This document shows positions 6,896-34,633 of a stretch of 64,000 bases of DNA, piece after piece. The stretch's first letter is position 1. Every line of letters begins with the position of its first letter. Position numbers and translations under genes: made by a program. The notes below the pieces were generated by a model. The model was not told the origin of the DNA and did not search any database. It was given only the letters and a program-made list of their open reading frames with translations. Origin of the DNA: a virus; the IMG/VR virus record IMGVR_UViG_3300025030_001282, positions 15,915 through 79,914 of that record; one strand, written 5' to 3'.

Positions 6896-7426
6896 ATGCA
6901 CGCGAAAGAGATACTGCCGCAGATCGCGCCGACCAGCACCAGCCAAGCCGACCGGTTCAGCCTGAACCTCTGGCGTTGGGTACGAAAGGCCTGCAGGGGC
7001 AACAGCAAGGGGCAGCTGCACCTGTTCGTGGCCATCGCCACCAAAGACGCGGGCAGCTTCGACCCGACCAGGACGCAGGCCAGCAGCCTGTATATCGGAT
7101 TGGGCAACTTGGATGAAGGATGGCTCCACGGCTCGCGCCTGAGCGAAATCCTCTGCACCGGGGTCAAGGCCTCCGGCTACGCCTACCCGCCCAGGATGAA
7201 GTTCGAGATCATTGCGGACTGGTGGGAGCGGTACATCGTAGGCGGGAAATGCTTTATCGACCCGGCCCACACCCTTTACTTCGACCGTGAGCGCTGGCAG
7301 GAAAGCGCCGATGGCAAGGAGCGCACCTGCCTCTGGTGCGGCAAGCACAAGCAGCACCTGCACGCCGAGATGGTGGAGAAGACGGACTGGAGAAACCCGA
7401 CAACGGAGGAAGTAAGCAATGTGTGA
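6896..7426 (+). CDS. Hypothetical phage protein
   Basis: AAGGAG RBS; ORF track. Confidence 0.65.
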   Translation: MHAKEILPQIAPTSTSQADRFSLNLWRWVRKACRGNSKGQLHLFVAIATKDAGSFDPTRTQASSLYIGLGNLDEGWLHGSRLSEILCTGVKASGYAYPPRMKFEIIADWWERYIVGGKCFIDPAHTLYFDRERWQESADGKERTCLWCGKHKQHLHAEMVEKTDWRNPTTEEVSNV

Positions 7427-7727
7427 TTGCAGAGAGAAGATCGAGGCGAGGCTGCTGCAGGCCTTCAAGGAAGAGCACCCGGAGGCGACCGATCACAAGG
7501 TGAAGCTGGAGGGCTACGCCTTCATTTTCGGAGCCCAGGTGACCGTGAAGGCCTGCATGCCGATCAAGCGCACCGCGACCTTCCCGGTGAAGAAAGGCGG
7601 CGGTACCAGGGAGAAGGCCGAGAAGGTCAGCCTCATGTTCAACTGCTGCCCCTTCTGCGGTGAGAAGTACGAGAGGGAGGAGCCCGCCCCGGAAGCCCCG
7701 AAGGAGGAAACGCCGTGCGCCTTGTAA
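7419..7727 (+). CDS. Hypothetical protein (MCDC...CPFCG family)
   Basis: Terminal Cys motifs; GGAGG RBS. Confidence 0.65.
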   Translation: MCDCREKIEARLLQAFKEEHPEATDHKVKLEGYAFIFGAQVTVKACMPIKRTATFPVKKGGGTREKAEKVSLMFNCCPFCGEKYEREEPAPEAPKEETPCAL

Positions 7728-14596: not shown

Positions 14597-15967
14597 ATGG
14601 CTATTCAAGACGATTTCAGCCTCAACTACACCACCAAGAAGATCAGCCACGCCAGCGGATCAACCCGCTACACGGTCAACGCCTTTTACTCCTGGCTCAT
14701 GGATCTGTTTGACGATGCGGGTCAGATTGACGATTCCGTGCCGGTGAAAGCGAACACCCCGACCGAGTACGAGCTTATCAACGGGTGGGAGTTCAACGCC
14801 GATTCAGATCTGGAGTACCTGTATGGCGGCTCCATCATCGTCAACAAGGGCGGCGGGAATGACATCTGGGCGAACTTCTACACGCTCGGCTCCATCAATG
14901 CAGGGTCCGTGGTCTACTGGCAGCAGGGTGCGGCCCTCGTTGCTTCTCATGCCGGATACAGCACCGGCCATATTGACCAGCTTATCAAGGTCGCGGCAGC
15001 AGGGGTGGACAATGACAGCAAAAAAGTCACCGCCTACATCCGCAACCTGGGCGACAGCTACGACCATTTCCAAGTCACGGCAACGGCGACCGGTGGACGA
15101 AACCCCGTCCCGCTGGCGACCTCCACCGACCTCAACGACGATGCAGCAACGGCGTCCATCGGCACCATGACCGTCGCTTTCGGTACGGTCAGCCGGGACA
15201 TTGGCGACGGCAACGGGGCGCAGAACTACGATGTGGAGGTTGACGCCACCGGCTATACCTGTGCTCAGGCGTACAAACTGCTCAAGTACCACACGCGCAG
15301 GCAAGCAACTGGTGCAGTCGGCACCGGCAACACGACTGCCGGGAGGTTCTACCAGGCTGCAAACGGGGCTTACTCGGCAGTCAAGGCCGCGCCCTTTGGC
15401 ACTTTCGCGGGCGGGAAATTCTTTGGTGCTAGAGGCGTCTGGTTGAAAGGGGTTGCCGACCCTATGCAGATGCAGTTGATCGACGCTGGAGGGACCGTCA
15501 GGACGCCGCCCGTATCGATCTCTGTTGCTGTCTCCGGCGTCGTTGCTGGTGACAGGGTGCTGGTTGCCAGATCCTCGGCAGGGACGGTCAACAAGAGCCA
15601 GTTTACCATTGCCAGCGTCACGGCCAATACCATCGTGGCAACGGTGCCGATTCCTACTGACGTACCGGCAACCGGAGTCATCCGCGTGGGAGACACCCGC
15701 TACACCTACAGCGGCAAATCTGGCTCCACGTTCACAGGGGTGGCACCGAATCCGACTGGCAGCACAGGCGACTTCTACGTGCCGTTGATCGACACCGATG
15801 CAGCAGGAACGACTGTGACAGCACCGGCCATAACCTATCTGGCCGATTTCGATGTCATAGCGAGGGTGCGCAAAAAGGGCATCCTGCCGTTTGAAAACAC
15901 CGGCTCCGTCACCAACGCCGGATTGACCATCAGCGCAATCAGGACCGCCGACACCATAGCGGTCTAA
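14597..15967 (+). CDS. Putative virion structural protein (beta-rich)
   Basis: AGGAG RBS; T/G/A-rich; the C-terminal VRK+G...P motif is shared with the preceding gene. Confidence 0.65.
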   Translation: MAIQDDFSLNYTTKKISHASGSTRYTVNAFYSWLMDLFDDAGQIDDSVPVKANTPTEYELINGWEFNADSDLEYLYGGSIIVNKGGGNDIWANFYTLGSINAGSVVYWQQGAALVASHAGYSTGHIDQLIKVAAAGVDNDSKKVTAYIRNLGDSYDHFQVTATATGGRNPVPLATSTDLNDDAATASIGTMTVAFGTVSRDIGDGNGAQNYDVEVDATGYTCAQAYKLLKYHTRRQATGAVGTGNTTAGRFYQAANGAYSAVKAAPFGTFAGGKFFGARGVWLKGVADPMQMQLIDAGGTVRTPPVSISVAVSGVVAGDRVLVARSSAGTVNKSQFTIASVTANTIVATVPIPTDVPATGVIRVGDTRYTYSGKSGSTFTGVAPNPTGSTGDFYVPLIDTDAAGTTVTAPAITYLADFDVIARVRKKGILPFENTGSVTNAGLTISAIRTADTIAV

Positions 15968-20697: not shown

Positions 20698-22293
20698 CTA
20701 TGCGGCCAGCCCAATTTTGATCTGTGATCCGCCGTTCAAAACAGCAAATAGCGGTTTCTTAGCTTCCTTGTCGTAAGAGACGGCACCCTCGAAGGCCTGA
20801 GCGACAGACTGCGCCTCGCAGGTGAGTTCGCGGAAAGGCTTCGTGCCATAGTCTTGCGGCAACCAACCCTTGCCCCGGCAAGCCACGACGTTGAAGCGGC
20901 GCAGAATATCTTCATTCCTGAAGGTCAGGTGGATGGTGCCCTTTTTGTGCGCTGTGGCCTTGAAGTAGGTACTTTCCACGCCGGAGCTAACGCCAACGGC
21001 AAAGGATTTGCGGAGCGCATCAGAGATAGAAACGTATCCGGCCATGCCATCGAAGTAGTTCATAACCTTGTCGATATCGTCGAGAACCTCGGCAGCCTTG
21101 TAATCCAGTTGCAAGCCGCTGTAGCCATAGAACGGATTGCCGTAACTGGCCCGGATCGGCACAATGACGCGGCGACCGACCTTGAAAGCCTTGTTGGTTT
21201 TCCAGCCATTGAAGTAGTGGATGTTCTTCTGCCACAGGCCATCATCCCAGCAGTGCCGCACTGTGAACATGTCGAAGACATCAAGCACCGCTTCAGTCAG
21301 CGTTTGCTCATAGCCACCGATCAGGTTCATGACGAATTGCCGGATATTGCTTTCGGTGAAGTCCATGAAGCAGCGATCCGTCAGGGCGTGTTCGAACTCC
21401 GCCTGCTTCTTTGCGGTCAACCGGCTTTTCACATCTTTAAGGTCAAGCGTGCGACGCCAGAAGTCGACACGCACCGATCGCAGCAGCAGGTTCACTGCGT
21501 GCTGCAATTTCCCCGTGAGGTCTTCCGCAGAGCGCCCACCTTGTTGCCGCCCCCCCACGTCGTTCAACGTGAGGTATTTTCCGATGTGCCGATAGTTGCG
21601 GTAAAAGCCGGTAATCGTTTCCATCCCCACTTGCACAGCGCGGTTATATTCCAGGACCAGTTCCGAAATCGTGCGGCCATTGGACACTTCATGCTTTTCA
21701 GTGAAGGCAGCCTTCGACTCCTGAGCGATATCTTCAGCGCCAGCAAAAAGGTCATCTTCCACACGGCGGTCGATCACGATGCTGACCAGGGCCACCTCAA
21801 CGTCCGTGCGACGCTCTGCCAGTGAAAACCCGTTAGCAATGTATTCGATGCTGGCTCCGCATTCGTCCAGACGCCGGACTAAGAGCTTTCGGCTGCTGGT
21901 ATGCGGATTCCGAAGGGTCTCCGCGTTGAGGAGGAAAATAATCTGCCCCCGATACATAATGTCGAGAGCCTTGAGCAGATGCTGTTCCCCGTTTTCGAAG
22001 GGAGGATTGGCAATGATCAGGTCGAATTTATCCGGGCCGGAGTAGGCCAGGAAATCGGAATCGATCAGCTTGAAGGACTTGCCACGGAGGGTGGCTTGTA
22101 GTTCGGGGTCGCTTTCGATGGCGAAAATGTCGTCAGCAGAAAAACGCCGAGTGTGCGATGAAAGAAGCGCTTCAATGAGGTCACCCTTGCCAGCGGACGG
22201 CTCTAGAACCTTGACAGGGTGACCTTTGATTTTGCAGATCATGCGGGAGGCCAGGGAAACCGGAGTAGGGAAAAATGATTTGTTGCTTAACAC
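20698..22293 (-). CDS. N6-adenine DNA methyltransferase with a DUF4942-like C-terminus
   Basis: FFPTP, VLEPSAGKG (motif I), NPPF (motif IV); GWKTN and KKGTIH in the C-terminal part. Confidence 0.85.
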   Translation of the reverse strand: MLSNKSFFPTPVSLASRMICKIKGHPVKVLEPSAGKGDLIEALLSSHTRRFSADDIFAIESDPELQATLRGKSFKLIDSDFLAYSGPDKFDLIIANPPFENGEQHLLKALDIMYRGQIIFLLNAETLRNPHTSSRKLLVRRLDECGASIEYIANGFSLAERRTDVEVALVSIVIDRRVEDDLFAGAEDIAQESKAAFTEKHEVSNGRTISELVLEYNRAVQVGMETITGFYRNYRHIGKYLTLNDVGGRQQGGRSAEDLTGKLQHAVNLLLRSVRVDFWRRTLDLKDVKSRLTAKKQAEFEHALTDRCFMDFTESNIRQFVMNLIGGYEQTLTEAVLDVFDMFTVRHCWDDGLWQKNIHYFNGWKTNKAFKVGRRVIVPIRASYGNPFYGYSGLQLDYKAAEVLDDIDKVMNYFDGMAGYVSISDALRKSFAVGVSSGVESTYFKATAHKKGTIHLTFRNEDILRRFNVVACRGKGWLPQDYGTKPFRELTCEAQSVAQAFEGAVSYDKEAKKPLFAVLNGGSQIKIGLAA

Positions 22294-22907: not shown

Positions 22908-25900
22908 ATGCTGTACCTGCTGCTGCGCAAGAGCCAAATGGCCTTCGATTGGAACAAACCTGCCGAGAAGTCGGAACATACCGCCGAGCCCCACCACAAG
23001 GCATACGACCGAGTGACGGCCAGCGGCAAGCTGGTCCACGTCGAAGCCAAAGGCCCGCAGACCGAGGCACGCGAGAAGCTGGACCACGGCATGAAGATCA
23101 TGTACCGGACGCCGGAGATGCCTCGCCGCCGCAAGGGAACCATCACCGGCAGCGACGAATCCGGCTGGCATGTGACCGGGCAGCGTCAGGGCAACGTACT
23201 GAAGCCCTCCCAGCACGTCCTCCCCCGCGAGCAGATATGGACCATCCCGGAGCACGAGGCGGACCGGGCACCGAAGGGCACCCACGTAGCCGTCAGCGGG
23301 CACGGGCGCGTGCTGAAGCCAGAGATTGTCCGGGAACGGGCAGAGAAGGGATACGCCCGCCTGGGAATCACCGAAGACAAAGTGCTGACCCACCCCGAAG
23401 TGCTGCGCGTCATGAAAAACTCGCTGAACAAGCTCGCCAGGACCAATTCGATGATTATCGAGCCAGGGTTTAACGTGCAGAACGGCATGATCGTGAACGA
23501 TTCGCCGGAGTCGATGGACGCCTACGAAGCCTTCATGGACAGCCTGTTCAACAGCTTCCGCAGGCAGACCGCCCAGGCCCCCGACGAGATGGTGGACGAA
23601 TTCCGCGACCACCTGATGGGGAAACGCGACAACAGCCGCATATTCTGGACCGGGATCCAGGACGGCGAGACGGCGGCGCTGCGCTACGTGAAGAAGCGGA
23701 AACTGGAGCACCATACCCACGAGGAATTCAACACCTCTGCCGAAGGAGACTTCGAAGCCGGTATGCGGGAGATATCGAGCGAGACGGCGACCGCCCACCA
23801 CGAGGATTCCGACCTGAAGCGCCGCATCGACCGTGACAACGCGATCGAGGGAGCCCTGGCCGAGATGCACCCGAAGGCTGCCGAGCTGCTGCGCCGCCAT
23901 TTCGGCCTGGGCGATTACCAAGAGCCTCAGTCCACCGCAGCCATCGCCCGCGAGATGGGGACCACGAAGGAGAAGGTAGAAAAGGCGCTCACCCTGTCGC
24001 TGCAGGCCTTCGCCGCCACCAAGGGAAGCTCCGCCCTGCGGGAGTTTCTTAAATCGTTGCGGGAGGAACTGGATTTCAGAAAGGCCATTGTCTACGAGGA
24101 GGAGCTGCAGAAGAGCCACATCAAGCAGTACGCCCGCATGGACGGCATCGTGGTGCAAGAGCACCAGGACAAGCGCATCGCCAAGCACCCCGACCTGATC
24201 GCCCACGAGAACGCCCACGGCGACAAGGTACACACCGGAGCCGACCTGAAGCACGGCGCGGACCTCCAGGAGCACCTGAAGAGCCGAGGCTGGAAGCAGA
24301 AGGAAGTTTCCGCCGTGCGCAAGAAGGACGGAGCGAAGGTCGGCAAGAAGGAGGACATGCCGGAGCCGTCCGCGATCAAGGGGAAGAACCAGGAGAACTC
24401 CGCGCTGCAATCCGCACAGCGGACCATCCAGAAGATGCACGAAGCCGTGAAGAACGGCAGCGACCCGGTGGCCAGCCTGCAGGCGATCAACACCAGCCGT
24501 GGCAACCCGTACCTCGCCGCCGTGGACGACGAGAAAAAGAAGCTCTTCGAGCACTTCGGCCATGAAACCGACGACAGCGAGAAGCAGCAGAAGTTCGACA
24601 AGGACGGGCACACGGTGATTTTGGCCGACGACGGCAAGAAGGTGGCCTTCGCCGGAGGCGATATCGAGGCGAAGGGGAATAAACCGGTGGGCTCCCTCAC
24701 CGGCAAGAAGGAGGTCGAGAGCACCGATACCGGGAAGAAGCAGCCGAAGTTCATCACCGGGCGGCCCAACACGGCCTACACCGCGAAGATGAACGAGGTG
24801 AAGAGCAACTACGCCCTGGTCGAGGCGCACGACCTGACCGCCAGCCACACCATCCAGGGGCACGTGAACAAGGCATACCCCCAGGAGATCCAGCCCAGGG
24901 AGCGCGAGCGCGTTTCCAGCCAAATGCAGATGGCAAACATCATGAACGACCTGAAGCCCGAGCTGTTCGGCCACAGCGCCACCGCCTCCGATGGTGCGCC
25001 GATCGTGGGCAAGGACGGAGCGGTCGAATCCGGCAACGGGCGCACCATCGCACTTTCCGAGGCCTACAACAGGGGCCTCGCCGACAAATACAAGGAATGG
25101 CTCAAGGGGGAAGCCGAGCATTTCGGCCTGAAGCCCGAGGACGTGGAAGGGATGAAAAGCCCCATGCTGGTCCGGGTCCGGGACGAGGCGGACGGTAACA
25201 AGGACCGCGCCGAGTTCGCCCGCGAGGCAAACCAGAGCTCAAACCTGGGCAGCTCCCCCGCAGAGCAGGCCTGGACGGACGCCGACCGCATCGACGACAG
25301 CCTGCTGAAGAAGTTCACCGCCGACGAGGACGGCGAAATCTACAACGACGACAACATGCCCTTCATCACCGCGTTCCTGGGGAAGCTGGGCAAGAACGAA
25401 GCGGCGAGCTTGCAGGACGCCGACGGCGAGCCGAACAAGAAATGCATCGAGCGGATACAGAACGCAGTGTTCGCCAAGGTGTACGGCAGCTCGGTCCTTA
25501 CCGAGTTCCAGGCCGAGAGCGCCAAGCCGCGCATCAGGAACGTGCTGAAGGCGCTGAACGCCTGCGTCGGAGACTTCGCCCAGGTGAAAGGGCACGACGA
25601 CCTGGACGTGATACCGGACATGATGGAGGCGATCGAGTACACCCTTTCCCACCAGAGCGTGAGCCGAGCGGAGATGGAGCACACGCTAAAGAACGCCGGA
25701 GCCCTAAACTTCACCGGGGACACGCCGACGTTCAAGACGGACTTTGCGGTCAACATGATCCTCGCCATCACCGACCGCACCGGATCCAGGAACCGGCTGC
25801 AGAACGTGTTCAAGGCCATCAGCAACGAGATAAAGACCGAGGTGGCCAGCAGGGAGAACCCGGAGGTGGACATGTTTTCTGGACCGGCGCAGCCGAAGAC

Positions 25901-28900
25901 TAAAGAACAGGTGGTCAAGACCGCCCTGGAGAAGCAGGAGCGCCAGGAGATGCAGAAATCAGTAACGAGCGGGGCCTTTTTATTTAGAAAGGCACACGGA
26001 GGAGCACATGGCCGAGTTATCGGAAGAAGAAAAGTACAAGCGCAAGCAGGCGCTGCTGACGCGGGCGCTCGGGACGGCGGACAAACTGGACGCGGAGGAC
26101 GCGAAGAAGGAAGCCTCCGAAAAGGACAAAGCGAAGAAGCAGCGGGCAGAAAAGACGCAGGCCCGGCAGGAGGAGAAGGAGCAGGAAAAGGAGAAGGCCA
26201 AGAAGGACGCCGAGCCGGTTCTTGGCTGATCAAGGCCCACGTCGTAGCCTACAACCGCACCACCCACTCCGGGGCACTGGCCCAGGTACTGTCGCACGAA
26301 GACAGCCGGGTGAGCGGATACGGCGCAAAGCTGGCCAAGGTGAAGAACCCGAGCGACCTGCACAAGCTGCGCACGGAGCGCTTCGGACACCTCCCCCATT
26401 GGGGCAGGCTCGACGACCAGACGCGCCAGCACGTGCTGAACGCCGAGGACCACATCCATGACAGGCTCAAGGCCGAGGACTTCCACAAGAAGCTGAAGAC
26501 CGCCATCTCCGAGCACCCTGCGATGGATACCATCGACCGGAGCGGCTGGGGCCAGACCCGGCTCTTCAAGGCGCTGCTGCAGAAGTCGATGGGGAAGACC
26601 ATCTGCTTTGACTTTGACGGCGTGATCGCCGATTACAGCGACGGCTTTCAAGGCGTCGACGTTTTCGGCCAGCCGATCGAGGGAGCCTCCAAAACCCTGC
26701 ACGAGCTGCACGACGCCGGAGTGAAGATCATCATATTCACCACCCGCCAGGACACCCCCGCGCTCCGGGCCTACCTTGAGCAGAACAGCATCCCATTCGA
26801 CGAGATCAACAGGAACAGCGACCAGCCGGACCACACCAACGAGGGCAAGCCCATCGCCGACGCCTATGTGGACGACCGAGCCGTCAGGTTCGTGAACTGG
26901 CCCCTGGCAGCCGCTATGCTGGACCACACGCTGCGCAAGAGCGTGATGCACCCGGCAATGATCCTGCGGAAAAGCCAGATGTCGCTCTTCGATTGGGTAC
27001 CGCCCAAGCACGAGGAGGAGCGGACGGTACACGCGACCACCCGGCATCTTGCATCCGGCGCGGCGGTCGCAGTGAAGCAGCACGAGCGTAAGGTCCAGGT
27101 GGCGGAGAAGCCGAAGCCCGGAGGCACCAGCCTGAAGCACACGGACGAGAATTACCGCTACAAGGACGTGGGCCACGTCCCAGGGAGCCGGAAGGAGCTG
27201 GCAGCCGAGCAGGCCACCATGATCAAGCAGCGGGCAAAGACCGGCGCAGGCGTAGATTACCGGGAAGTGAATTGGGACGCCCTCGAGGAGAACCCGCGTG
27301 AGGCCTACGACCTGATCACGAAGGACTCGATCGCCAAGGAGGTGGATTGGGAGGCCATCAAAGCCAGCGGAGTGGAGCCCGGCGCAGGCTTCCTGATGTA
27401 CAAGCTCTACGCTGCCGTGGCACCCAAGCCGGAAGACAGCCCCCAGGCGAGGAAGGACTTTGTGTTCGGCATCAACGCCCTGCAGGAGCGTTTCACCGAT
27501 TGCAGGACCACCCCGGAGGTGATCGCCAAGATTCGGGAAATATCGGAGGAAATGACCGGCTTCACCATGAACCCGGAGCAGCAGAAGGAGTGGGAGCGCC
27601 TGGAGGCAGCATACCGCGAACCGGCGCAGACCGCCCGGAGGTTAAGCAAGGAGCACGACGCGGTATGGAACGCCTACTACAAGCCGAGCCAGCGGCTGCA
27701 GAACCTTAAATGGGACCAGGAGAAGCGGGTCCGGCGCGGCTGGAAAAAGGATCCCGAACTGGAAGCACAGATCGAGGCCCTGCAGAAAGACGTCGACGCA
27801 CTGTATCAGGTGGATCAGGCGTGGAGAGCCGCCAACCAAGCGGCTACGGAGCAGGCCGACAAGGCATCCACTGCCGCCTGGAAGGAACAGAGGGCCTTCA
27901 AGGAAAACGTGATCAACATCAACATCCTGACCCACCCGCTTACCAGAGGCTGGAACAGCTTCGGCAAGAAGTTCTTCAACGCCATCAACTACAGCAGCTA
28001 CAAAGGCTCCGATGCCTTCGGCACGCACGTGGCCACCGCCAGGAGCGGCAAGGTTCAGAATTGGGACTGGCTGGAGAAAGACACCAAGCCCAGGGCGGCC
28101 AGCAAGACCTCTGTGCAGTTCCAGTTGAAGGTAGCGGAGAACGTGGAGCGCATCGGCGGTGCTCCCTTGCCCAAAGCCGACTACGGCACCGACGACATCA
28201 AGAGGGAATTTAACCTCGCCAACGTGCAAAGCGGCAACTGGGTACTGAAAGACCTGAACGCAGCGAAACACCACACTGAGCAGTGCGCTATGGCCTTCCA
28301 GGACATGGCGGATATCCTGGGCATCCCCAGCAGCGAGATCAGCATGAACGGACGCCTCTCGGTCGCCTTCGGTGCCAGGGGGAGCGGCGGAGTGTTCGGG
28401 CCGGGAGCTGCCGCCCACTACGAGAACAAGTACCGGGTGATCAACCTGACCAAGATGAAGGGCGGCGGAAGCCTCGCCCACGAGTGGCTGCACTTCCTGG
28501 ACGACGTGGCAGGAGAGATCGAAACCGGAGAACGAAAAGGGCGCGAAACCTATGCAACCGATTCCGCGCCGACCACCCCGGTCCTGCAGGCGTTCAAGGA
28601 TCTGGCCTTCGAGATGGAGAACGGCGGCCACAACGAGTCGATCAAAATCAAGGTCACCATCACCGAGGCGGAGAAGGAGCACTGGCTGCAAAGAGTGGAA
28701 CGGGCACGTAAGAGCAACTTCTACGGGGCACCGACCATCCACATGATCGCCACAGCCAAAGACCTATCCGAGGCAGTGCAGGGCGCATTCGACGCCATGA
28801 CCGCAGGCAAGTTCGGAGCCGTGGGCGGCCACAAGGCCAAGAAGCAGTACGAGCTTTACCGGGAAATGGCCGTGGCAGTCCATGCGGGCACCGAGGGCAC

Positions 28901-29303
28901 CTACGATGCTATCGGATTTAAGACCGGCAGCAAGTACTACGTCGAGTCCCAGAAGATCGACGCGGGCACGAAGGGAAGTGGCTACTGGCAGAGCCGAAAG
29001 GAAATGGCGGCCCGAGCCTTCGCCGCCTACGTCAGCGACAAGCTGCACGAGCGCAAGCGGGAGAACACCTACCTGACCAGCTACGCCGACAACAAGTACT
29101 ATGTGCTGGAGGGGATCAAGCCCTACCCCGAAGGAGAAGAGCGGACCCGCATCAACGCCGCCTTTGACAAGCTGTTCGCCACGATCAAGACGAGCGGCAC
29201 CCTGCAGAAGGCCATGCAGAATTATGGCCGCGACCAGGGACGGCAGGAAACCGCCCGCCGCGTAGCGTACCTCATCCGCAAAAGAGGAGCGCAGGCATGC
29301 TGA
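22908..29303 (+). CDS. 2131-aa polyvalent protein: sigma70 region-4-like HTH, DdrB-like ParB, HAD phosphatase and LPD1/zincin-like domains
   Basis: LRRHFGL...IAREMG (~23845-24030); QPRER...DGAPIV...VESGNGR (~24800-25250); DFDGV...FTTR...KP...VDD (~26590-26900); AFGARG...INLTK..GGGSLAHEWLH and EMAARAF...YPEGEER (~28190-29190). Confidence 0.85.
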   Translation: MLYLLLRKSQMAFDWNKPAEKSEHTAEPHHKAYDRVTASGKLVHVEAKGPQTEAREKLDHGMKIMYRTPEMPRRRKGTITGSDESGWHVTGQRQGNVLKPSQHVLPREQIWTIPEHEADRAPKGTHVAVSGHGRVLKPEIVRERAEKGYARLGITEDKVLTHPEVLRVMKNSLNKLARTNSMIIEPGFNVQNGMIVNDSPESMDAYEAFMDSLFNSFRRQTAQAPDEMVDEFRDHLMGKRDNSRIFWTGIQDGETAALRYVKKRKLEHHTHEEFNTSAEGDFEAGMREISSETATAHHEDSDLKRRIDRDNAIEGALAEMHPKAAELLRRHFGLGDYQEPQSTAAIAREMGTTKEKVEKALTLSLQAFAATKGSSALREFLKSLREELDFRKAIVYEEELQKSHIKQYARMDGIVVQEHQDKRIAKHPDLIAHENAHGDKVHTGADLKHGADLQEHLKSRGWKQKEVSAVRKKDGAKVGKKEDMPEPSAIKGKNQENSALQSAQRTIQKMHEAVKNGSDPVASLQAINTSRGNPYLAAVDDEKKKLFEHFGHETDDSEKQQKFDKDGHTVILADDGKKVAFAGGDIEAKGNKPVGSLTGKKEVESTDTGKKQPKFITGRPNTAYTAKMNEVKSNYALVEAHDLTASHTIQGHVNKAYPQEIQPRERERVSSQMQMANIMNDLKPELFGHSATASDGAPIVGKDGAVESGNGRTIALSEAYNRGLADKYKEWLKGEAEHFGLKPEDVEGMKSPMLVRVRDEADGNKDRAEFAREANQSSNLGSSPAEQAWTDADRIDDSLLKKFTADEDGEIYNDDNMPFITAFLGKLGKNEAASLQDADGEPNKKCIERIQNAVFAKVYGSSVLTEFQAESAKPRIRNVLKALNACVGDFAQVKGHDDLDVIPDMMEAIEYTLSHQSVSRAEMEHTLKNAGALNFTGDTPTFKTDFAVNMILAITDRTGSRNRLQNVFKAISNEIKTEVASRENPEVDMFSGPAQPKTKEQVVKTALEKQERQEMQKSVTSGAFLFRKAHGGAHGRVIGRRKVQAQAGAADAGARDGGQTGRGGREEGSLRKGQSEEAAGRKDAGPAGGEGAGKGEGQEGRRAGSWLIKAHVVAYNRTTHSGALAQVLSHEDSRVSGYGAKLAKVKNPSDLHKLRTERFGHLPHWGRLDDQTRQHVLNAEDHIHDRLKAEDFHKKLKTAISEHPAMDTIDRSGWGQTRLFKALLQKSMGKTICFDFDGVIADYSDGFQGVDVFGQPIEGASKTLHELHDAGVKIIIFTTRQDTPALRAYLEQNSIPFDEINRNSDQPDHTNEGKPIADAYVDDRAVRFVNWPLAAAMLDHTLRKSVMHPAMILRKSQMSLFDWVPPKHEEERTVHATTRHLASGAAVAVKQHERKVQVAEKPKPGGTSLKHTDENYRYKDVGHVPGSRKELAAEQATMIKQRAKTGAGVDYREVNWDALEENPREAYDLITKDSIAKEVDWEAIKASGVEPGAGFLMYKLYAAVAPKPEDSPQARKDFVFGINALQERFTDCRTTPEVIAKIREISEEMTGFTMNPEQQKEWERLEAAYREPAQTARRLSKEHDAVWNAYYKPSQRLQNLKWDQEKRVRRGWKKDPELEAQIEALQKDVDALYQVDQAWRAANQAATEQADKASTAAWKEQRAFKENVININILTHPLTRGWNSFGKKFFNAINYSSYKGSDAFGTHVATARSGKVQNWDWLEKDTKPRAASKTSVQFQLKVAENVERIGGAPLPKADYGTDDIKREFNLANVQSGNWVLKDLNAAKHHTEQCAMAFQDMADILGIPSSEISMNGRLSVAFGARGSGGVFGPGAAAHYENKYRVINLTKMKGGGSLAHEWLHFLDDVAGEIETGERKGRETYATDSAPTTPVLQAFKDLAFEMENGGHNESIKIKVTITEAEKEHWLQRVERARKSNFYGAPTIHMIATAKDLSEAVQGAFDAMTAGKFGAVGGHKAKKQYELYREMAVAVHAGTEGTYDAIGFKTGSKYYVESQKIDAGTKGSGYWQSRKEMAARAFAAYVSDKLHERKRENTYLTSYADNKYYVLEGIKPYPEGEERTRINAAFDKLFATIKTSGTLQKAMQNYGRDQGRQETARRVAYLIRKRGAQAC
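26008..26229 (+). CDS. Nested +1-frame ORF (73 aa, K/E-rich helix) overprinting the giant gene
   Basis: GGAGGAG RBS at 25998-26004 after an AT-rich patch; genome-typical codons in this frame, while the host frame reads as G/R-rich filler. Confidence 0.65.
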   Translation: MAELSEEEKYKRKQALLTRALGTADKLDAEDAKKEASEKDKAKKQRAEKTQARQEEKEQEKEKAKKDAEPVLG

Positions 29304-30253
29304 TACTTTTAAAGAAAAAGCACGCATTGCGTGCAGAAACGATGCAAAAGGCGCGAAAGCTTGACGGACGCATAAACTTCAACGGCCTGGAGGTGTCGAT
29401 CGAGACAGGGCGCTCCCGTTGCCGGGTCTGGTACGACCCGCACAACAAGAGCGAGGGCATGTCCCGGATGGCGCTCCCCTACGGTTACATCAAGGGGACG
29501 CTGGGCACCGACGGGGACCACGTGGACGTGTTCGTCGGCCCGGACCACAGCGCCCCCGAGGTCTACGTGATCCACACCACGAAGGCCCCCGACTTCACTG
29601 AGTACGACGAGGACAAATGCGTCCTGGGAGTAGGAAGCCCCGAGGCGGCCCAGCGGGCATTCTCCGCGAGCTACAGCGACCCGCAGTTTTACGGCGGCAT
29701 GAGCATCTGGCCTTTCGAGGAATTCAAGGCGCACGTGCTATCGAGCGAGGCCAAGGGGCAGCCCCTGCGGAAGTCCGGAGAGGAGTACTGCAAGAAGCTC
29801 GGGGACCAGCTGGGCATCGATTGGAAGCAGGTAGACCTGGATGCATTCTGCGACGGCATGTTCGAGGAGGACGGCAAGCACGGAAGCATCGCGGGAGCCG
29901 CTAGGGTAGTGATCGCCAACCTGAAGAAAGACCCGCACTGCTACTCCGGGGAGAGCAAGAGCGGCAGGCTGCAGAAGGCGCTCTTCACCGTCGCGGAAAT
30001 CCGGGAACGTGCCCAGAAGGCATATCGGGAGGCCTGCACCGCTGCAGGCGGCAACTGGAACGATCTGAACCCGGAGGAGTTCTACCAGGGGATGAAGGAG
30101 GAGATGGAGCACCGGGACGTGACAGGAGGTGATCTGGTCCTGACCGCCAAGATCGTCCTCGCCCACCTGCGGGAAGACGCGAGCTATTACAGCAAGCTTG
30201 AAAGACTGCAGAAGGCTAGGAAGACCCGACTTCTTGCCGGTGCCTACTGGTAA
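29297..30253 (+). CDS. Inorganic-pyrophosphatase-like domain plus two DUF5661-like domains
   Basis: YGYIKGT.G.DGDHVDVFVG...YDEDK..LG; GMKEEMEH...AKIVLAHLRED..YYSKL plus a degenerate copy (GMFEEDGKH...ANLKKDPHCY). Confidence 0.8.
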   Translation: MLILLKKKHALRAETMQKARKLDGRINFNGLEVSIETGRSRCRVWYDPHNKSEGMSRMALPYGYIKGTLGTDGDHVDVFVGPDHSAPEVYVIHTTKAPDFTEYDEDKCVLGVGSPEAAQRAFSASYSDPQFYGGMSIWPFEEFKAHVLSSEAKGQPLRKSGEEYCKKLGDQLGIDWKQVDLDAFCDGMFEEDGKHGSIAGAARVVIANLKKDPHCYSGESKSGRLQKALFTVAEIRERAQKAYREACTAAGGNWNDLNPEEFYQGMKEEMEHRDVTGGDLVLTAKIVLAHLREDASYYSKLERLQKARKTRLLAGAYW

Positions 30254-30256
30254 CGG

Positions 30257-30571
30257 GTGGGCCACGACAGGGATAGCATAACCCAGCACGCCTGGGACCG
30301 TTTTCTGGAAAGGTGGGAAGGCAGACGCCCAGCCTGCTGGCGCAAAGAACTGTACCGCCTGATCGAGACATCGGTTTTCGAAGACCTGGGGCATGGGCAA
30401 GTTGTCCGGCTGATTAACCACGGATATCAGCCAGCGGTTTACCTCACCACAGAAGGCTGGCGCTTTGTGGTGGACAAGACCTCCGGGATACTGCTGACAT
30501 GCGAACGAGCGTATAAAAGGGCGAAGGCCCGAGCGCCCAAGGGGATCAGCCGGAAGAGGTGCGGGCGATAA
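30257..30571 (+). CDS. Hypothetical protein (T.HA..RF.ER motif; possibly an RNase-like fold)
   Basis: ITQHAWDRFLERW; GTG start right after the previous stop. Confidence 0.5.
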   Translation: MGHDRDSITQHAWDRFLERWEGRRPACWRKELYRLIETSVFEDLGHGQVVRLINHGYQPAVYLTTEGWRFVVDKTSGILLTCERAYKRAKARAPKGISRKRCGR

Positions 30572-30611
30572 AGGGAAGGGGGGAGGCGCTGTCTCCTCTC
30601 CCCTTCCCTTT
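30570..30611. terminator. Bidirectional hairpin terminator between convergent genes
   Basis: aaagggaagggg...ccccttcccttt inverted repeat. Confidence 0.7.
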
Positions 30612-31099
30612 CAGATCCTGAAGAACCCCAACTGCCCCTTTAAGGGATAGAAGGGCAGCGGCTTGATATCGCGCAGCACAAAGCCATACGGCCCCATGAA
30701 CCAGGGTGAATCCGACCTGTTGACGCAATCCACGATCTCCGCCTCGCCGATGATACCGCCGCGCTCAATAGTGCCCGCCATGATCTCCCTGCACCCCTTT
30801 TCCCAAGCCTCCGGGCACCGCTGCCGCACCCAATCCCAGGAACCGCGCCACTCGTCCTTCGTCACGCCTTTAGCCGCATGGATCAGGACGCGGCCCCGCA
30901 CCTTTGTCCGCCAGGAGCGGTTTTCAATATCTTTGCCAGCATTGACGATAAGCCACGCCCACGGCTGCCGGATGGAAAGGACCAGCCCGGTCGGAGCGGG
31001 ACCAGAAGTGATAAGCCCAGCAGCCGACGGCGCGGCTGGGGGGAAGAGACAAAGATCACCCACGAGACACCTCCTACACACCAAGATACCTACGCGCAA
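30611..31099 (-). CDS. ASCH-domain protein (true start may lie downstream of 31099)
   Basis: LSIRQPWAWLIV..GKDIENRSW...RG.VLIHA...KGQLG.F. Confidence 0.85.
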   Translation of the reverse strand: MRVGILVCRRCLVGDLCLFPPAAPSAAGLITSGPAPTGLVLSIRQPWAWLIVNAGKDIENRSWRTKVRGRVLIHAAKGVTKDEWRGSWDWVRQRCPEAWEKGCREIMAGTIERGGIIGEAEIVDCVNRSDSPWFMGPYGFVLRDIKPLPFYPLKGQLGFFRI

Positions 31100-31134
31100 A
31101 GAAAGGCCGCCACGGAAAATGATATCGGAAAAGA

Positions 31135-31175
31135 CAAAAAGTTTGACCGAGTGAAATTATTGACATACGCTACAG
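31135..31175 (+). promoter_or_regulatory. Promoter TTGACC-17-TACGCT, overlapped by the conserved motif (31160-31175)
   Basis: CAAAAAGT-TTGACC (31143), -10 at 31166-31171, motif TTGACATACGCTACAG. Confidence 0.65.
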
Positions 31176-31179
31176 CGAA

Positions 31180-31371
31180 ATGGCCAAGCCGCGCACAATA
31201 TACCTGCTTCGCAAAAGCAGCCAGGGCGCAGAAGAGGCGATCCCGGTACTGACCCGAACGGACCTGCCGCTCAGGTTCCACTACAAGGGCCGGGAAATAA
31301 ACATAGAGGCAACCCCCAAGGGAAACCTCGTAATCAAAGAGACACGCTTGACAGGGAACAACGGGGAGTAG
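31180..31371 (+). CDS. Small hypothetical protein, probably leaderless
   Basis: ATG lies ~9 nt after the -10 box; contains YLLRKS. Confidence 0.55.
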   Translation: MAKPRTIYLLRKSSQGAEEAIPVLTRTDLPLRFHYKGREINIEATPKGNLVIKETRLTGNNGE

Positions 31372-31400
31372 CCGAAAGGCAAATGACCCGTCCAGTTATA

Positions 31401-31433
31401 GGCGACTACCGGTACTACCGGAGTCGCCTTTTT
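31401..31433 (+). terminator. Intrinsic terminator-like hairpin upstream of the protease gene
   Basis: ggcgact(a)ccgg-tacta-ccggagtcgcc followed by TTTTT. Confidence 0.6.
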
Positions 31434-31449
31434 GCGTTTGGAGCCCGGA

Positions 31450-32391
31450 ATGGAAGCAGAAGACCAAGTCCTATTTGAATTGCCGGTGGAACTGGAACTC
31501 AGAAAGAGCCAGGGCAGCAGCACGCCGCGCCGCATTCTCCGGGGCTACGCATCCACCGCGAGCAAGGACCAGGACGGCGAAACTGTTTTGCAGCACGGGA
31601 TGGACTTTTCCCCGCTCCTGAAATCCGGCTTCATGAACTACGACCACCAGGGCAAGTGCCTGCAATGCCAAGTGGTGTCTGATCGCCCGGTCTGCCCCAG
31701 CTGCGGATCCAGAGCAAAGATGCCGATTATCATCGGCTACCCGCTCAGCGCCGAGATCCGGGACAAGGGATGGTGGCTGGAAAGCGAAATTTTCAACGGT
31801 GCCGCCGCCGTCGACGTCAACAGCGACCAGCTGCGGCTCGCAGACGAAATGTGGGCGCTCGGTATGGCCATGCAGAAATCTGGCGGTAACAGGAGCCTTG
31901 CCTATTCGGTCGAGGGAGGCGTCCTGCAGCGGCACGGCAAGAAGGTGGTTAAGTCCGTGGTCCGGCACTGCGCCGTTACCCACAAGCCGGTGAACGAGGA
32001 CGCAAGCGTCGAGCTGTTCATGAAATCCATGTGCTGCGGGCGCTGCAACCCGGATCACATGCTCTACGTGCCCGGCCACAGCTGCGGAAGCCATGCGGAA
32101 GACGAAGTGCAGAAAGCCATGTCCACCGAATCCGCCGCGCCGCTCATGCTGCAGAACCTGGACCGGGGCACCTCGGGGCTCCTGTACGGGATGAACCCGA
32201 CCGCCTGCGGCTGCTGCGATGAAAACTGGAAGTTCAAGAACGGAGTGGTGGGAGCAGCCAACCACCTTCAGAAATGCCAGGGGCTATCCAAGGACCAAAG
32301 CATATCGTTCCTGCGCAAAGTGATCCATAACGCGCCGCACCGTCCCGACCTTGCGGCGCTCGTCAAACAAGCCGGTCTCATAGGCAATTAA
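31450..32391 (+). CDS. Prohead (maturation) protease
   Basis: GYAST..KDQDGE.V.Q.G.D...NYDH...YSVEG...CAVT..PVN; lies before scaffold and capsid; GGAG RBS favours ATG 31450. Confidence 0.85.
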   Translation: MEAEDQVLFELPVELELRKSQGSSTPRRILRGYASTASKDQDGETVLQHGMDFSPLLKSGFMNYDHQGKCLQCQVVSDRPVCPSCGSRAKMPIIIGYPLSAEIRDKGWWLESEIFNGAAAVDVNSDQLRLADEMWALGMAMQKSGGNRSLAYSVEGGVLQRHGKKVVKSVVRHCAVTHKPVNEDASVELFMKSMCCGRCNPDHMLYVPGHSCGSHAEDEVQKAMSTESAAPLMLQNLDRGTSGLLYGMNPTACGCCDENWKFKNGVVGAANHLQKCQGLSKDQSISFLRKVIHNAPHRPDLAALVKQAGLIGN

Positions 32392-32410
32392 AGAGGGGAG
32401 GAATATACGC

Positions 32411-33151
32411 ATGGACGCAAGGGCTAAAGCCAAAAAACAGTACGACGACACGATGGCCGAGCTGGACCTGCTCGAAAAATCGCAGAAAACCGGCGATGAA
32501 GCTACCGACGATCTGGAGGCGCTTACCAAGTCGCTGGAAGCGGAACTTGCAGGGGACGACCCCCTGAAGAAATCCGGGGACAACGACGCGGACGACAAGG
32601 GCGGCAAAACCGAGGGCGACGAGGAAACCGAGATGGAGAAATCCCTCCGCCTCGCCGCCGAGGAAGAACTCCGCAAAGCCCAGGAAGCCGAGCAGGAGGA
32701 GTACGACGAACTGGTGAAGGCCAGCGAGGCGTATGCAGCTCTCGAGGAGACGATCCAGAAGTCCCACGGCGGGATTCAGGAGCAACTTTCGACGCTGTGC
32801 AAGAGCATGGCAGCCCTGACCAACCTCAACCTCAAGATGGCCGGTGTGATTACCGCGCAGTCCGGAGAGATCGCCACCCTGAAGAAGTCCCGCGAAGAGG
32901 ATCTGGAAACCATCCAGAAATCCGTGGCCACCCTGGGCGGCAGGCCGGTCATGCCGAACACTGCGGTCCTCGGCGTGAAGCTGGTCGACGGCAAGGAAGA
33001 GACGCTGACCAAATCCCTTTCCGAAATCGGCGACGACCTGACCAAGGCAGTCCAGGAAGGCAAGATCGATTCCCGCCACCTCTCGGTGTGGGGCACCTAC
33101 AAGGACGTCAACCGGCTGCCCGACGAAGTAAAGACGCTCATCGGCATTTAA
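32411..33151 (+). CDS. Scaffold protein
   Basis: Acidic coiled-coil between protease and capsid; 12 [LIM]xK[SA] motifs. Confidence 0.8.
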   Translation: MDARAKAKKQYDDTMAELDLLEKSQKTGDEATDDLEALTKSLEAELAGDDPLKKSGDNDADDKGGKTEGDEETEMEKSLRLAAEEELRKAQEAEQEEYDELVKASEAYAALEETIQKSHGGIQEQLSTLCKSMAALTNLNLKMAGVITAQSGEIATLKKSREEDLETIQKSVATLGGRPVMPNTAVLGVKLVDGKEETLTKSLSEIGDDLTKAVQEGKIDSRHLSVWGTYKDVNRLPDEVKTLIGI

Positions 33152-33193
33152 CGGTCTTACAACAGGCCTGCACTCAAAAAGGGAGGAATTAGC

Positions 33194-34633
33194 GTGGATA
33201 TCCAGAGTTTTGACATGATGCTGAAAGCAGGCGGATATAGCCTGACCGGGGACCAGATCGTCGACGATCTCCGCAAAGCACTTACCACCACCAACAGCGG
33301 CCCCGGCGGCATCCAGTCCGGCCCGCTGATGCTGGAGAACCTGGACTCGGTCATGACCGAAGTCCTGATCACTGAGCAGCATTTCAAGCTGTTCAACAAA
33401 CTGCCCAAGGTGCCGAGCGCCCAGCCGTACTACGAGTACAACGTCCACAAGGGCTTCGGCTCGAACCGTTCCGGTGGTGCAGGCTTCCGCCAGGGCGGAG
33501 CGCCGAAGGGCGGCACCAGCTCCTTCGAGAGAAAGGGCATCTACAACAAGTTCCTGGGCGTAAAAGGCGGAGTGACCCACCAGATGCTCATCACCGGGCA
33601 GAACGGCGGGAGCTTCGAAGACCCCACGGTCCGCGAAAACCGCGACCGCACCCTGGAGCTGCTGGAGAAGGTCGAGCGTGAACTGATGTTCGGCCAGAAA
33701 GCCATCCTCGACGAGAACGGCGAGGAAGTAAACTTCGACGGACTGCTGACCCAGCTGCTCGCCGACAACGGCGCGAACGTGATCGACATGAAGGGTGCGC
33801 CCCTGACCTTCGACGAGCTGGACGACGCCGCCCAGGATCTGATCACGACCGGCAAGCAGCCTTCGGTGAACGGTTACCAGATTCTGCAGAGCCCGCACGT
33901 TTCCAGCGGCCTCAACAAGCAGTTCGGCACCAGGAACCAGGTCCGCTTCAACAAGGACAGCGCCGTGAACGCGAACTACGTCCCCGGCCAGAGCATCAAC
34001 AAGTACGATTCGGAGTTCGGCACCTTCGAGTTCGACCACTCCATCCTCCTGCAGGAAGTGGAAGCCGCCGCTCCGGTCGCTGCCGCGCCCGCCAACGTTC
34101 CCGCCACCCCGGCGATCACCACCCAGCCCGCAGCAGCCGACGACGCCGTAGGCAACCACATTGCCGGGACGGTCTACTACTCCATCGCGGCCTTTAACGA
34201 TACCGGCGAGAGCCTGCCGGTGATCACCGACGCCGTCGCCATCCCGGACGCTACCAGCAAGGTGACCACCGTCATCACCCGGCTGGCAGGGGCCACCGGC
34301 TACCGCATTTATCGCGGCAAGCTGGCCGACGGCTCCGACCACAAGTGGATTGCCAAGGTGGCACAGAGCACCTCCGGCAACATCACCTTCGTGGACAAGA
34401 ACGGCTGGTTCACCACCGACGCCAACGGCAAGCAGTCCGACGGCCTCGCCCTGATGATCAAGCCCGAGGCCCGCGACATCGCCATCGCACAGATGACGCC
34501 GATGATCAAGATGCCGCTGCCGCAGGAGGGGACCACCTTCCCCTTCCTGCTGCTGCTCTACATCGTCAGCGTGATCAAGGCCCCGGAAAGGGTCAAGATT
34601 TACAAGAACTGCGGCACCTTTACCCCGGCCTAG
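33194..34633 (+). CDS. Major capsid protein (SPO1/A511-like, with an FN3-like insertion)
   Basis: L..ENLD, E...FG, FDGL...NVID.KG..L, Y.Y...A.N..GES..., Y.IYR; GGGAGG RBS. Confidence 0.9.
   Translation: MDIQSFDMMLKAGGYSLTGDQIVDDLRKALTTTNSGPGGIQSGPLMLENLDSVMTEVLITEQHFKLFNKLPKVPSAQPYYEYNVHKGFGSNRSGGAGFRQGGAPKGGTSSFERKGIYNKFLGVKGGVTHQMLITGQNGGSFEDPTVRENRDRTLELLEKVERELMFGQKAILDENGEEVNFDGLLTQLLADNGANVIDMKGAPLTFDELDDAAQDLITTGKQPSVNGYQILQSPHVSSGLNKQFGTRNQVRFNKDSAVNANYVPGQSINKYDSEFGTFEFDHSILLQEVEAAAPVAAAPANVPATPAITTQPAAADDAVGNHIAGTVYYSIAAFNDTGESLPVITDAVAIPDATSKVTTVITRLAGATGYRIYRGKLADGSDHKWIAKVAQSTSGNITFVDKNGWFTTDANGKQSDGLALMIKPEARDIAIAQMTPMIKMPLPQEGTTFPFLLLLYIVSVIKAPERVKIYKNCGTFTPA

Follow-up and report, generated by a model that had tools for sequence, protein, structure and literature searches.

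The window analysed here, a 64,000-nt stretch (positions 15,915 to 79,914) of IMG/VR virus record IMGVR_UViG_3300025030_001282, contains a giant open reading frame (ORF) that encodes a polyvalent virion-module protein. Within one spacer of this ORF, one base out of its frame, the interval 26008-26229 is probably a real, separately initiated small gene. The source is an uncultured virus record of 79.9 kb, whose completeness was judged to be ~91 %. A separately translated gene had been proposed at this place in a preliminary description of the sequence, and the proposal is now supported by an ATG and a Shine-Dalgarno (SD) site in all seven loci with the nested layout and in most free-standing relatives, by signs of purifying selection on the +1 frame and by an unstructured start region.

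Codon phase and start signals of the nested ORF

The small ORF is complete and lies wholly inside the giant ORF, on the same strand and in a different frame. The sequence features listed in the preliminary description (the giant ORF, the AT-rich patch, the GGAGGAG site, the ATG at 26008, the 73-codon ORF and the motifs FLFRKAH and WLIKAH) were all found in place (Table 1). The length of the small ORF was not significant by itself, since alternative-frame ORFs of 60-170 codons are numerous in this GC-rich giant gene. Codon usage was more informative: GC content at third codon positions (GC3) over the overlap was 0.82 for the small frame but 0.33 for the host frame, compared with ~0.86 elsewhere in the giant ORF, so that the codon switch between frames noted earlier proved to be sharp. 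In 150-nt windows, host-frame GC3 was 0.73-0.98 throughout the giant ORF except in four windows spanning 25908-26282 (0.33-0.53), where the GC peak shifts to the third codon position in the +1 frame. The overlap is rich in purines and poor in T (T = 2-9 %), which makes stops scarce in all frames and an open second frame fairly likely; the host frame was open at P = 0.35 on synonymous resampling. What is above chance is the codon-phase switch together with conservation across other genomes.

The nested layout was found in six other loci, making seven with the window. Four of these (L002-L005) are related viral contigs with ~80 % amino-acid identity in the ParB cassette; each possesses a homologous +1 ORF with an ATG, and the host frame is open through the overlap in ORFs of 1512-2025 codons. 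The fifth (L007) is a Geobacteraceae metagenome-assembled genome in which the nested module lies in a host ORF with LPD3 and InPase domains, and the sixth (L026/L028) belongs to another genome of the same order, the Desulfuromonadales. An interrupted +1 frame or the lack of a ribosome-binding site in homologues had been named in the preliminary description as grounds for giving up the small gene; the frame was intact and the site was retained. In every nested locus GGAGG, AAGGAG or GAGGAGG stands 4-7 nt before the ATG (GGAGG or AAGGAG at the equivalent sites of L002-L005, L007 and L026), and SD site and ATG were kept together in seven out of seven as initiation signals of the ORF's own. The AT of the ATG is contributed by a host-frame codon for His, Asn or Tyr, depending on the locus, yet xAT-G is always kept, which argues for selection on the start codon and not on the host residue.

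The region from -30 to +30 around the ATG at 26008 had a predicted folding energy of -6.2 kcal/mol, against an ORF-wide mean of -15.3, which places it among the 0.9 % least structured windows. In the six nested loci that were folded (L026 was left out), the 60 nt around the start ranked within the least structured 1-8 % of host-ORF windows. No promoter-like site was detected in a scan of 25500-26500, so the small gene is presumably carried on the same late mRNA as the giant ORF. Reading of this shared late message would proceed by ribosomes starting at the internal site, yielding a single amphipathic helix of ~70 residues.

The start region also bears on a different explanation, a programmed +1 frameshift in which some of the ribosomes on the giant ORF would slip near 25985-26005 and stop at 26229, so that a shortened protein with the ParB domain and a helical tail would be made. 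Just upstream there are a rare AGA codon and a strong SD-like site, a combination that loosely resembles prfB-type frameshift sites. Such a frameshift is nevertheless extremely unlikely, because a stop closes the +1 frame 6-14 codons before the ATG in the window and in L002-L004, leaving a tiny stretch in which to slip, because no slippery heptamer, as expected of programmed frameshifting, is conserved across the loci, and because the same ATG and SD site are present in free-standing copies, where there is no host ORF.

Selection on the two frames

Over 27 ungapped core codons in six loci (15 pairs), the proportion of non-synonymous differences (pN) in the small frame was 0.12-0.43 against a proportion of synonymous differences (pS) of 0.20-0.91, by a simple Nei-Gojobori count in which synonymous sites were saturated; in the host frame, pN was at or above pS in 13 of the 15 pairs. 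Host-frame translations of the overlap had no meaningful amino-acid conservation and ran to Cys-rich strings in the lower-GC relatives. These comparisons indicate purifying selection on the +1 small frame and not on the host frame. The comparison of dN/dS in both frames that had been suggested in the preliminary description accordingly found constraint in the small frame only, with pN well below pS. Across the overlap the host frame has the appearance of an unconstrained Gly/Ala/Arg-rich spacer, the absence of stops being its sole visible constraint. The comparative data separate the frames cleanly, one appearing to be selected as protein and the other only to stay open.

The possibility was considered that the small frame is an untranslated relic, once an in-frame K/E-rich linker or a captured gene and now out of frame, with codons that still look coding because too little time has elapsed. 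Spacers tolerate compensating frameshifts, and purine-rich sequence can be open in several frames by chance (P ~0.35 in the GC-rich loci). However, comparisons between loci show synonymous sites of the small frame at saturation (pS 0.5-0.9) but a low pN, which suggests that the frame has been maintained for a long time. The ATG and SD site are kept in all nested loci, with an unstructured start in the six examined, and no large protein was found in which the peptide is in frame as a linker. A relic is therefore quite unlikely.

What is conserved might instead be the nucleotide sequence, as an RNA element or as a hotspot for recombination where cassettes join. Across 11 loci in very different contexts, DNA homology is limited to ~30 nt upstream and ~105 nt of the ORF, and the module seems portable between cassettes, both of which would suit such an element. 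The variable sites in the small frame are nevertheless concentrated at the third codon position (17, 16 and 24 of 27 at positions 1, 2 and 3, respectively), replacements are conservative (K/R, D/E), and the region is unusually unstructured and not structured, all of which makes this explanation very unlikely and favours conservation of a protein.

Another study's sediment-metagenome contig, ~95 % identical, covers 25600-26600 and differs by 49 substitutions, with 0 gaps. The 12 listed changes that fall in the small ORF were seven synonymous and five non-synonymous in the small frame, compared with three and nine in the host frame, and only synonymous changes occurred in the first 31 codons of the small ORF. 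Homopolymer runs (G4, T5) at the upstream border could have led to two compensating indel errors that shifted a normal linker out of frame. An assembly or sequencing artefact of this kind is hardly conceivable: the independent, gapless contig argues for ruling it out, and the same layout recurs in six other independent assemblies. Nor did the concern raised earlier, that the giant ORF could be an assembly fusion of separate genes, find support, as the independent assembly is free of indels.

The probability that the host frame stays open was estimated for five loci by resampling synonymous codons of the small protein with the codon usage of each locus, giving values of 0.35, 0.05, 0.33, 0.34 and 0.05; the third frame contained one to three stops in all five. 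The -1 frame relative to the small ORF was closed in nine of 10 free-standing copies and in none of the seven nested ones (Fisher P = 4e-4), a comparison that is partly circular, 'nested' being defined by openness. The cassettes 3' of the spacer have no start codon of their own, and read-through of the spacer would therefore be needed to make them.

The small-protein family and its contexts

A profile of the small protein gave 28 called homologues in a 5.8-billion-cluster database, and 47 clusters at 50 % identity were found among 1.84 billion representatives, nearly all of 32-88 aa and matching from residue 1. Matches were carried by 13 of 239 Desulfuromonadales genomes. Scans of viral contigs with small-protein profiles recovered only one contig, which was already known, because confirmation of matches is weak for so short a query. 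Long same-strand overlaps with good two-frame coding evidence are rare in bacteria and phages and are excluded by standard gene callers, which would explain why the family is recorded mostly only where the host ORF is cut or broken. The small protein appears to represent a new, uncharacterised family in mobile elements of Geobacter-like bacteria of groundwater and sediments.

The conserved part comprises the first ~30 residues, with a consensus near EEKYxRKxxLLxxALxxADxxD, and the tails are free to differ in both length and composition. Residues Y10, K13, L16, L17, A20, A24 and D28 are invariant; they are spaced at 3-4 residues, which puts them on one helix face, and AlphaFold2 predicted one helix covering residues 6-67 (pLDDT 90). 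This conserved stripe may be a protein-binding surface, with the tail left free to vary. The product would then act in trans as a small adaptor or regulator, made together with the packaged effectors; that it serves in anti-defence or as a packaging adaptor is a guess.

The SD site and ATG persist in free-standing copies, with a weak or unclear signal in a few (e.g. L017 and L020). Their neighbours are unrelated genes: L013 has one tyrosine-recombinase-like and one serine-recombinase-like gene, L009 a GIY-YIG-like gene, and in L012 and L014 the neighbours are phage genes. In L012, L016, L018 and L019 the small ORF is intact within short, broken remnants of a polyvalent frame that still show junction motifs. 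The same helix forms the N-terminus of larger proteins with an uncharacterised domain in L021-L023, P0054 and P0071. Occurrence of the small gene free-standing, in relics and fused to other domains suggests an autonomous module, which would be portable and not a partner specific to ParB.

This distribution bears on the role that the preliminary description had assigned to the small protein, that of an inhibitor or chaperone dedicated to the neighbouring DdrB-like ParB domain, captured and travelling with it as a cassette. The small gene does directly follow the ParB-containing cassette in the window and in L002-L005, so that ddrB-ParB homologues with a similar nested ORF, a check suggested in the preliminary description, do exist. 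In L005 the downstream cassette is different and the upstream one is the same, and relics in L018 and L026 retain the C-terminal end of the ParB-containing cassette. Co-occurrence is not restricted to ddrB-ParB cassettes, however. The 883-aa ORF of L007 had no ddrB-ParB match, the module there being nested between LPD3-containing and InPase cassettes; free-standing copies adjoin recombinases, the GIY-YIG-like gene and other genes; and the N-terminal helix is also fused to unrelated domains. A dedicated ParB partner is therefore unlikely. Co-folding of the ParB cassette with the small protein gave scores of 0.02 and 0.00 against a mark of 0.32, which counts neither way.

Several observations were made on individual relatives. 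In the Desulfuromonadales loci L021, L022 and L023, the domain fused to the helix has a conserved AEGG...LY.PW...VHPEF pattern, with an HNH-like tail in one case. An AEGG domain fused to an alpha/beta-hydrolase-looking region (recognized by eye, without a profile match) was seen at L029:4982-5863, ~1 kb from a relic small ORF. A link between the small gene and the AEGG domain was rejected, this domain being absent from the phage studied here. L012 contains a second, degenerate small-ORF core on the opposite strand (7218-7469), ~1.2 kb from the intact copy. The ends of L009, a contig of 1682 nt, are repeated, ORF 11-409 being equal to the C-terminus of ORF 1081-1682, and L009 may be a small circular or tandem element made up of the GIY-YIG-like gene and the small ORF.

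The peptide was found in frame within long proteins in only two cases, P0031 and P0032, of which P0032 is a probable chimera of the peptide with FliJ. In P0031 (203 aa, on a 2.6-kb Joint Genome Institute contig), the small frame continues through the LIK junction into a globular downstream cassette. Internal initiation in P0031 would yield a helix-cassette fusion.

The spacer, the origin of the overlap and the host gene

The giant ORF combines ddrB-ParB and LPD1 (aa 2021-2095) domains, both of which pass Pfam cut-offs, so that several unrelated effector or LPD domains share one polypeptide; relatives add InPase and LPD3. It is encoded among the late/virion genes of the phage, followed directly by a minor-head-like gene, the head maturation protease (prohead protease) and the major head protein. 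This domain content, with head genes directly downstream, identifies it as a virion-module polyvalent protein of the type described in PMC5512222. Features of the overlap, the host gene and the motifs considered below are listed in Table 1.

Table 1. Features of the nested small ORF, its host gene and the putative processing sites, in window coordinates
Feature	Position	Strand	Remarks
Probable small gene, 73 codons and TGA (26227-26229)	26008-26229	+	+1 frame of giant ORF; predicted single long helix
AT-rich patch 5' of internal start	25974-25992	+	Overlaps host-frame junction motif FLFRKAH (25977-25997)
SD site GGAGGAG, 3 nt before ATG	25998-26004	+	Gly-Gly in host frame
Conserved core, first ~31 codons of small gene	26008-26100	+	Alignments; DNA homology among 11 loci
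Host-frame spacer, aa 1031-1105	25998-26222	+	Gly 23, Ala 13, Arg 10 of 75 residues
Downstream junction motif WLIKAH; next cassette begins	26223-26240	+	Its CTGA contains the stop codon of the small gene
Host gene, polyvalent virion-module protein, 2131 codons	22908-29303	+	Upstream of head genes
ddrB-like ParB domain, in cassette 5' of spacer	24792-25181 (aa 629-758)	+	Pfam PF18763, E = 1.9e-35
Head maturation protease	31432-32391	+	PHROG 1028, E = 4.7e-33; putative enzyme for h-x-K-[S/A] sites
h-x-K-[S/A] in putative scaffold	32411-33151		12 observed, 1.07 expected, P <0.0005
h-x-K-[S/A] in protease			6 observed, 0.9 expected, P <0.0005
h-x-K-[S/A] in giant ORF			17 observed, 7.4 expected, P = 0.001

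The two putative cleavage motifs reported earlier do stand on either side of the dual-coding stretch, and both (FLFRK|AH and WLIK|AH) fit the pattern h-x-K-[S/A]. Enrichment of this pattern was assessed by shuffling each protein and comparing observed with expected counts. Strong enrichment was seen in all three proteins (putative scaffold, protease and giant ORF), and the giant-ORF sites cluster at domain junctions. The pattern is a candidate prohead-protease cleavage code, and its presence on both flanks makes excision of the spacer plausible. The prohead protease would probably trim the spacer off, and the irrelevance of the spacer's sequence would then be explained. In a motif survey of 22908-34633, the pattern also occurred twice near the N-terminus of the major head protein.

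A stricter, LRKS-type motif also begins the giant ORF, the next gene and another small ORF, located just before the protease. Several genes of the head module (at 22908, 29297, 31180 and 31432) encode, at the N-terminus or close to it, hydrophobic residues and then [RK]K[SK] (LLLRKSQ, LILLKKKH, YLLRKSS and ELRKSQ), which may be a capsid-targeting or propeptide signal. The idea that the LRKS junction motif is a DNA relic of an SD site plus start was rejected: Arg is encoded by CGC or CGG at the other junctions, which suggests a motif of the protein and not a ribosome-binding site in disguise.

Codon usage is the usual guide to age in overlapping genes, the older frame being the one whose codons are typical of the genome (PMC8227390, PMC3494269). 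Here it is the small frame that has genome-typical codons, and its free-standing and fused relatives likewise suggest that the small gene is older than the overlap. The overprinting set out in the preliminary description stands as far as dual coding is concerned; its direction does not, being probably the reverse, with the giant ORF having grown across a pre-existing gene. The most economical history is most likely that cassette genes were fused into one ORF by reading across the small intervening gene, after which selection would have kept the frame free of stops. The data suggest an unusual origin in this respect, a giant modular ORF fused across an existing small gene and not a small gene born inside a large one.

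A wider proposal can be put forward only tentatively and is on balance doubtful. In phages and other mobile elements, the disposable, protease-trimmed spacers of polyvalent proteins packaged in the virion might hide independently translated small genes, the helix gene and its two junction motifs being a portable 'gene-in-linker' cassette that moves between polyvalent proteins; the product might be an undescribed trans-acting factor (e.g. for anti-defence or as an adaptor in packaging) whose production keeps pace with that of the packaged effectors, and such genes might form a general, overlooked coding layer that gene callers cannot report. If it is true that the prohead protease removes the spacer, overlaps of this kind would cost the host protein nothing, and more hidden genes would be predicted in polyvalent-protein linkers.

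Several points weigh against a separate small gene as set out above. The case for translation of 26008-26229 is drawn from sequence comparison, and L003 and L004 are close relatives, so that the nested loci are not fully independent. The selection figures, from a simple count on 27 codons with saturated synonymous sites, do not involve an overlapping-gene model. An open host frame in the GC-rich loci is not very improbable alone (P ~0.35). A K/E-rich sequence gives a high-confidence single helix by default, which makes the structure prediction uninformative alone, and the small protein had no match in Pfam, PHROGs, NCBIfam, PADLOC, PDB (none below E = 0.1) or the ESM Atlas. Some of the 'free-standing' copies carry junction-motif remnants and may be recent debris of polyvalent genes. 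Cleavage at the flanking motifs on head maturation, and with it excision of the spacer, is putative.

Among the closest known systems, Rz/Rz1 of phage lambda has the same embedded layout: the whole of Rz1, including an SD site and a start codon, is contained in Rz on one strand, in the +1 frame, and a single late mRNA serves both genes. In these respects the small ORF described here resembles Rz1. The two lambda products are subunits of a single machine, and the protein is constrained in each frame. Unlike in lambda, the host frame appears to be an unconstrained spacer, and a functional link between the two products is not part of the case; the small protein is also unrelated to spanins and has neither a lipobox nor a signal peptide. 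In phiX174, genes B in A and E in D are viral overprinted genes, for which codon usage separates the older from the newer frame (PMC8227390, PMC3494269). One DNA stretch is likewise read in two frames here, but in cases of the phiX174 type the new small gene arises de novo in an old gene, whereas here the large ORF seems to be the later of the two readings.

The host ORF itself is like polyvalent proteins of the P1 DdrB type, which are known from phages and conjugative elements, in that it joins ddrB-ParB, LPD1 and other modules beside head genes. Virion-packaged polyvalent proteins such as P1 DdrB are described as proteolytically processed (Iyer et al. 2017, PMC5512222). By a term search, linkers, overlapping genes and frameshifts are each mentioned 0 times in that paper, and the polyvalent-protein description published there does not include a spacer-nested gene.

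An HExxH motif (HEWLH, aa 1858) without a profile match occurs at 28479-28493 in the C-terminal part of the giant ORF, and may be a candidate for the self-processing metallopeptidase (MPTase) module of polyvalent proteins. An InPase-like cassette is present as its own gene at 29297-30253, its start overlapping the stop of the giant ORF (ATGCTGA); it is fused into the polyvalent ORF in L005 and L007, which suggests that cassettes alternate between separate genes and fused modules. Searches of plasmid and phage collections with blastn gave no match. Upstream of the giant gene, an opposite-strand ORF of 531 aa (20698-22293, minus strand) matched phage DNA methyltransferase families (PHROG 32703 and 6263).

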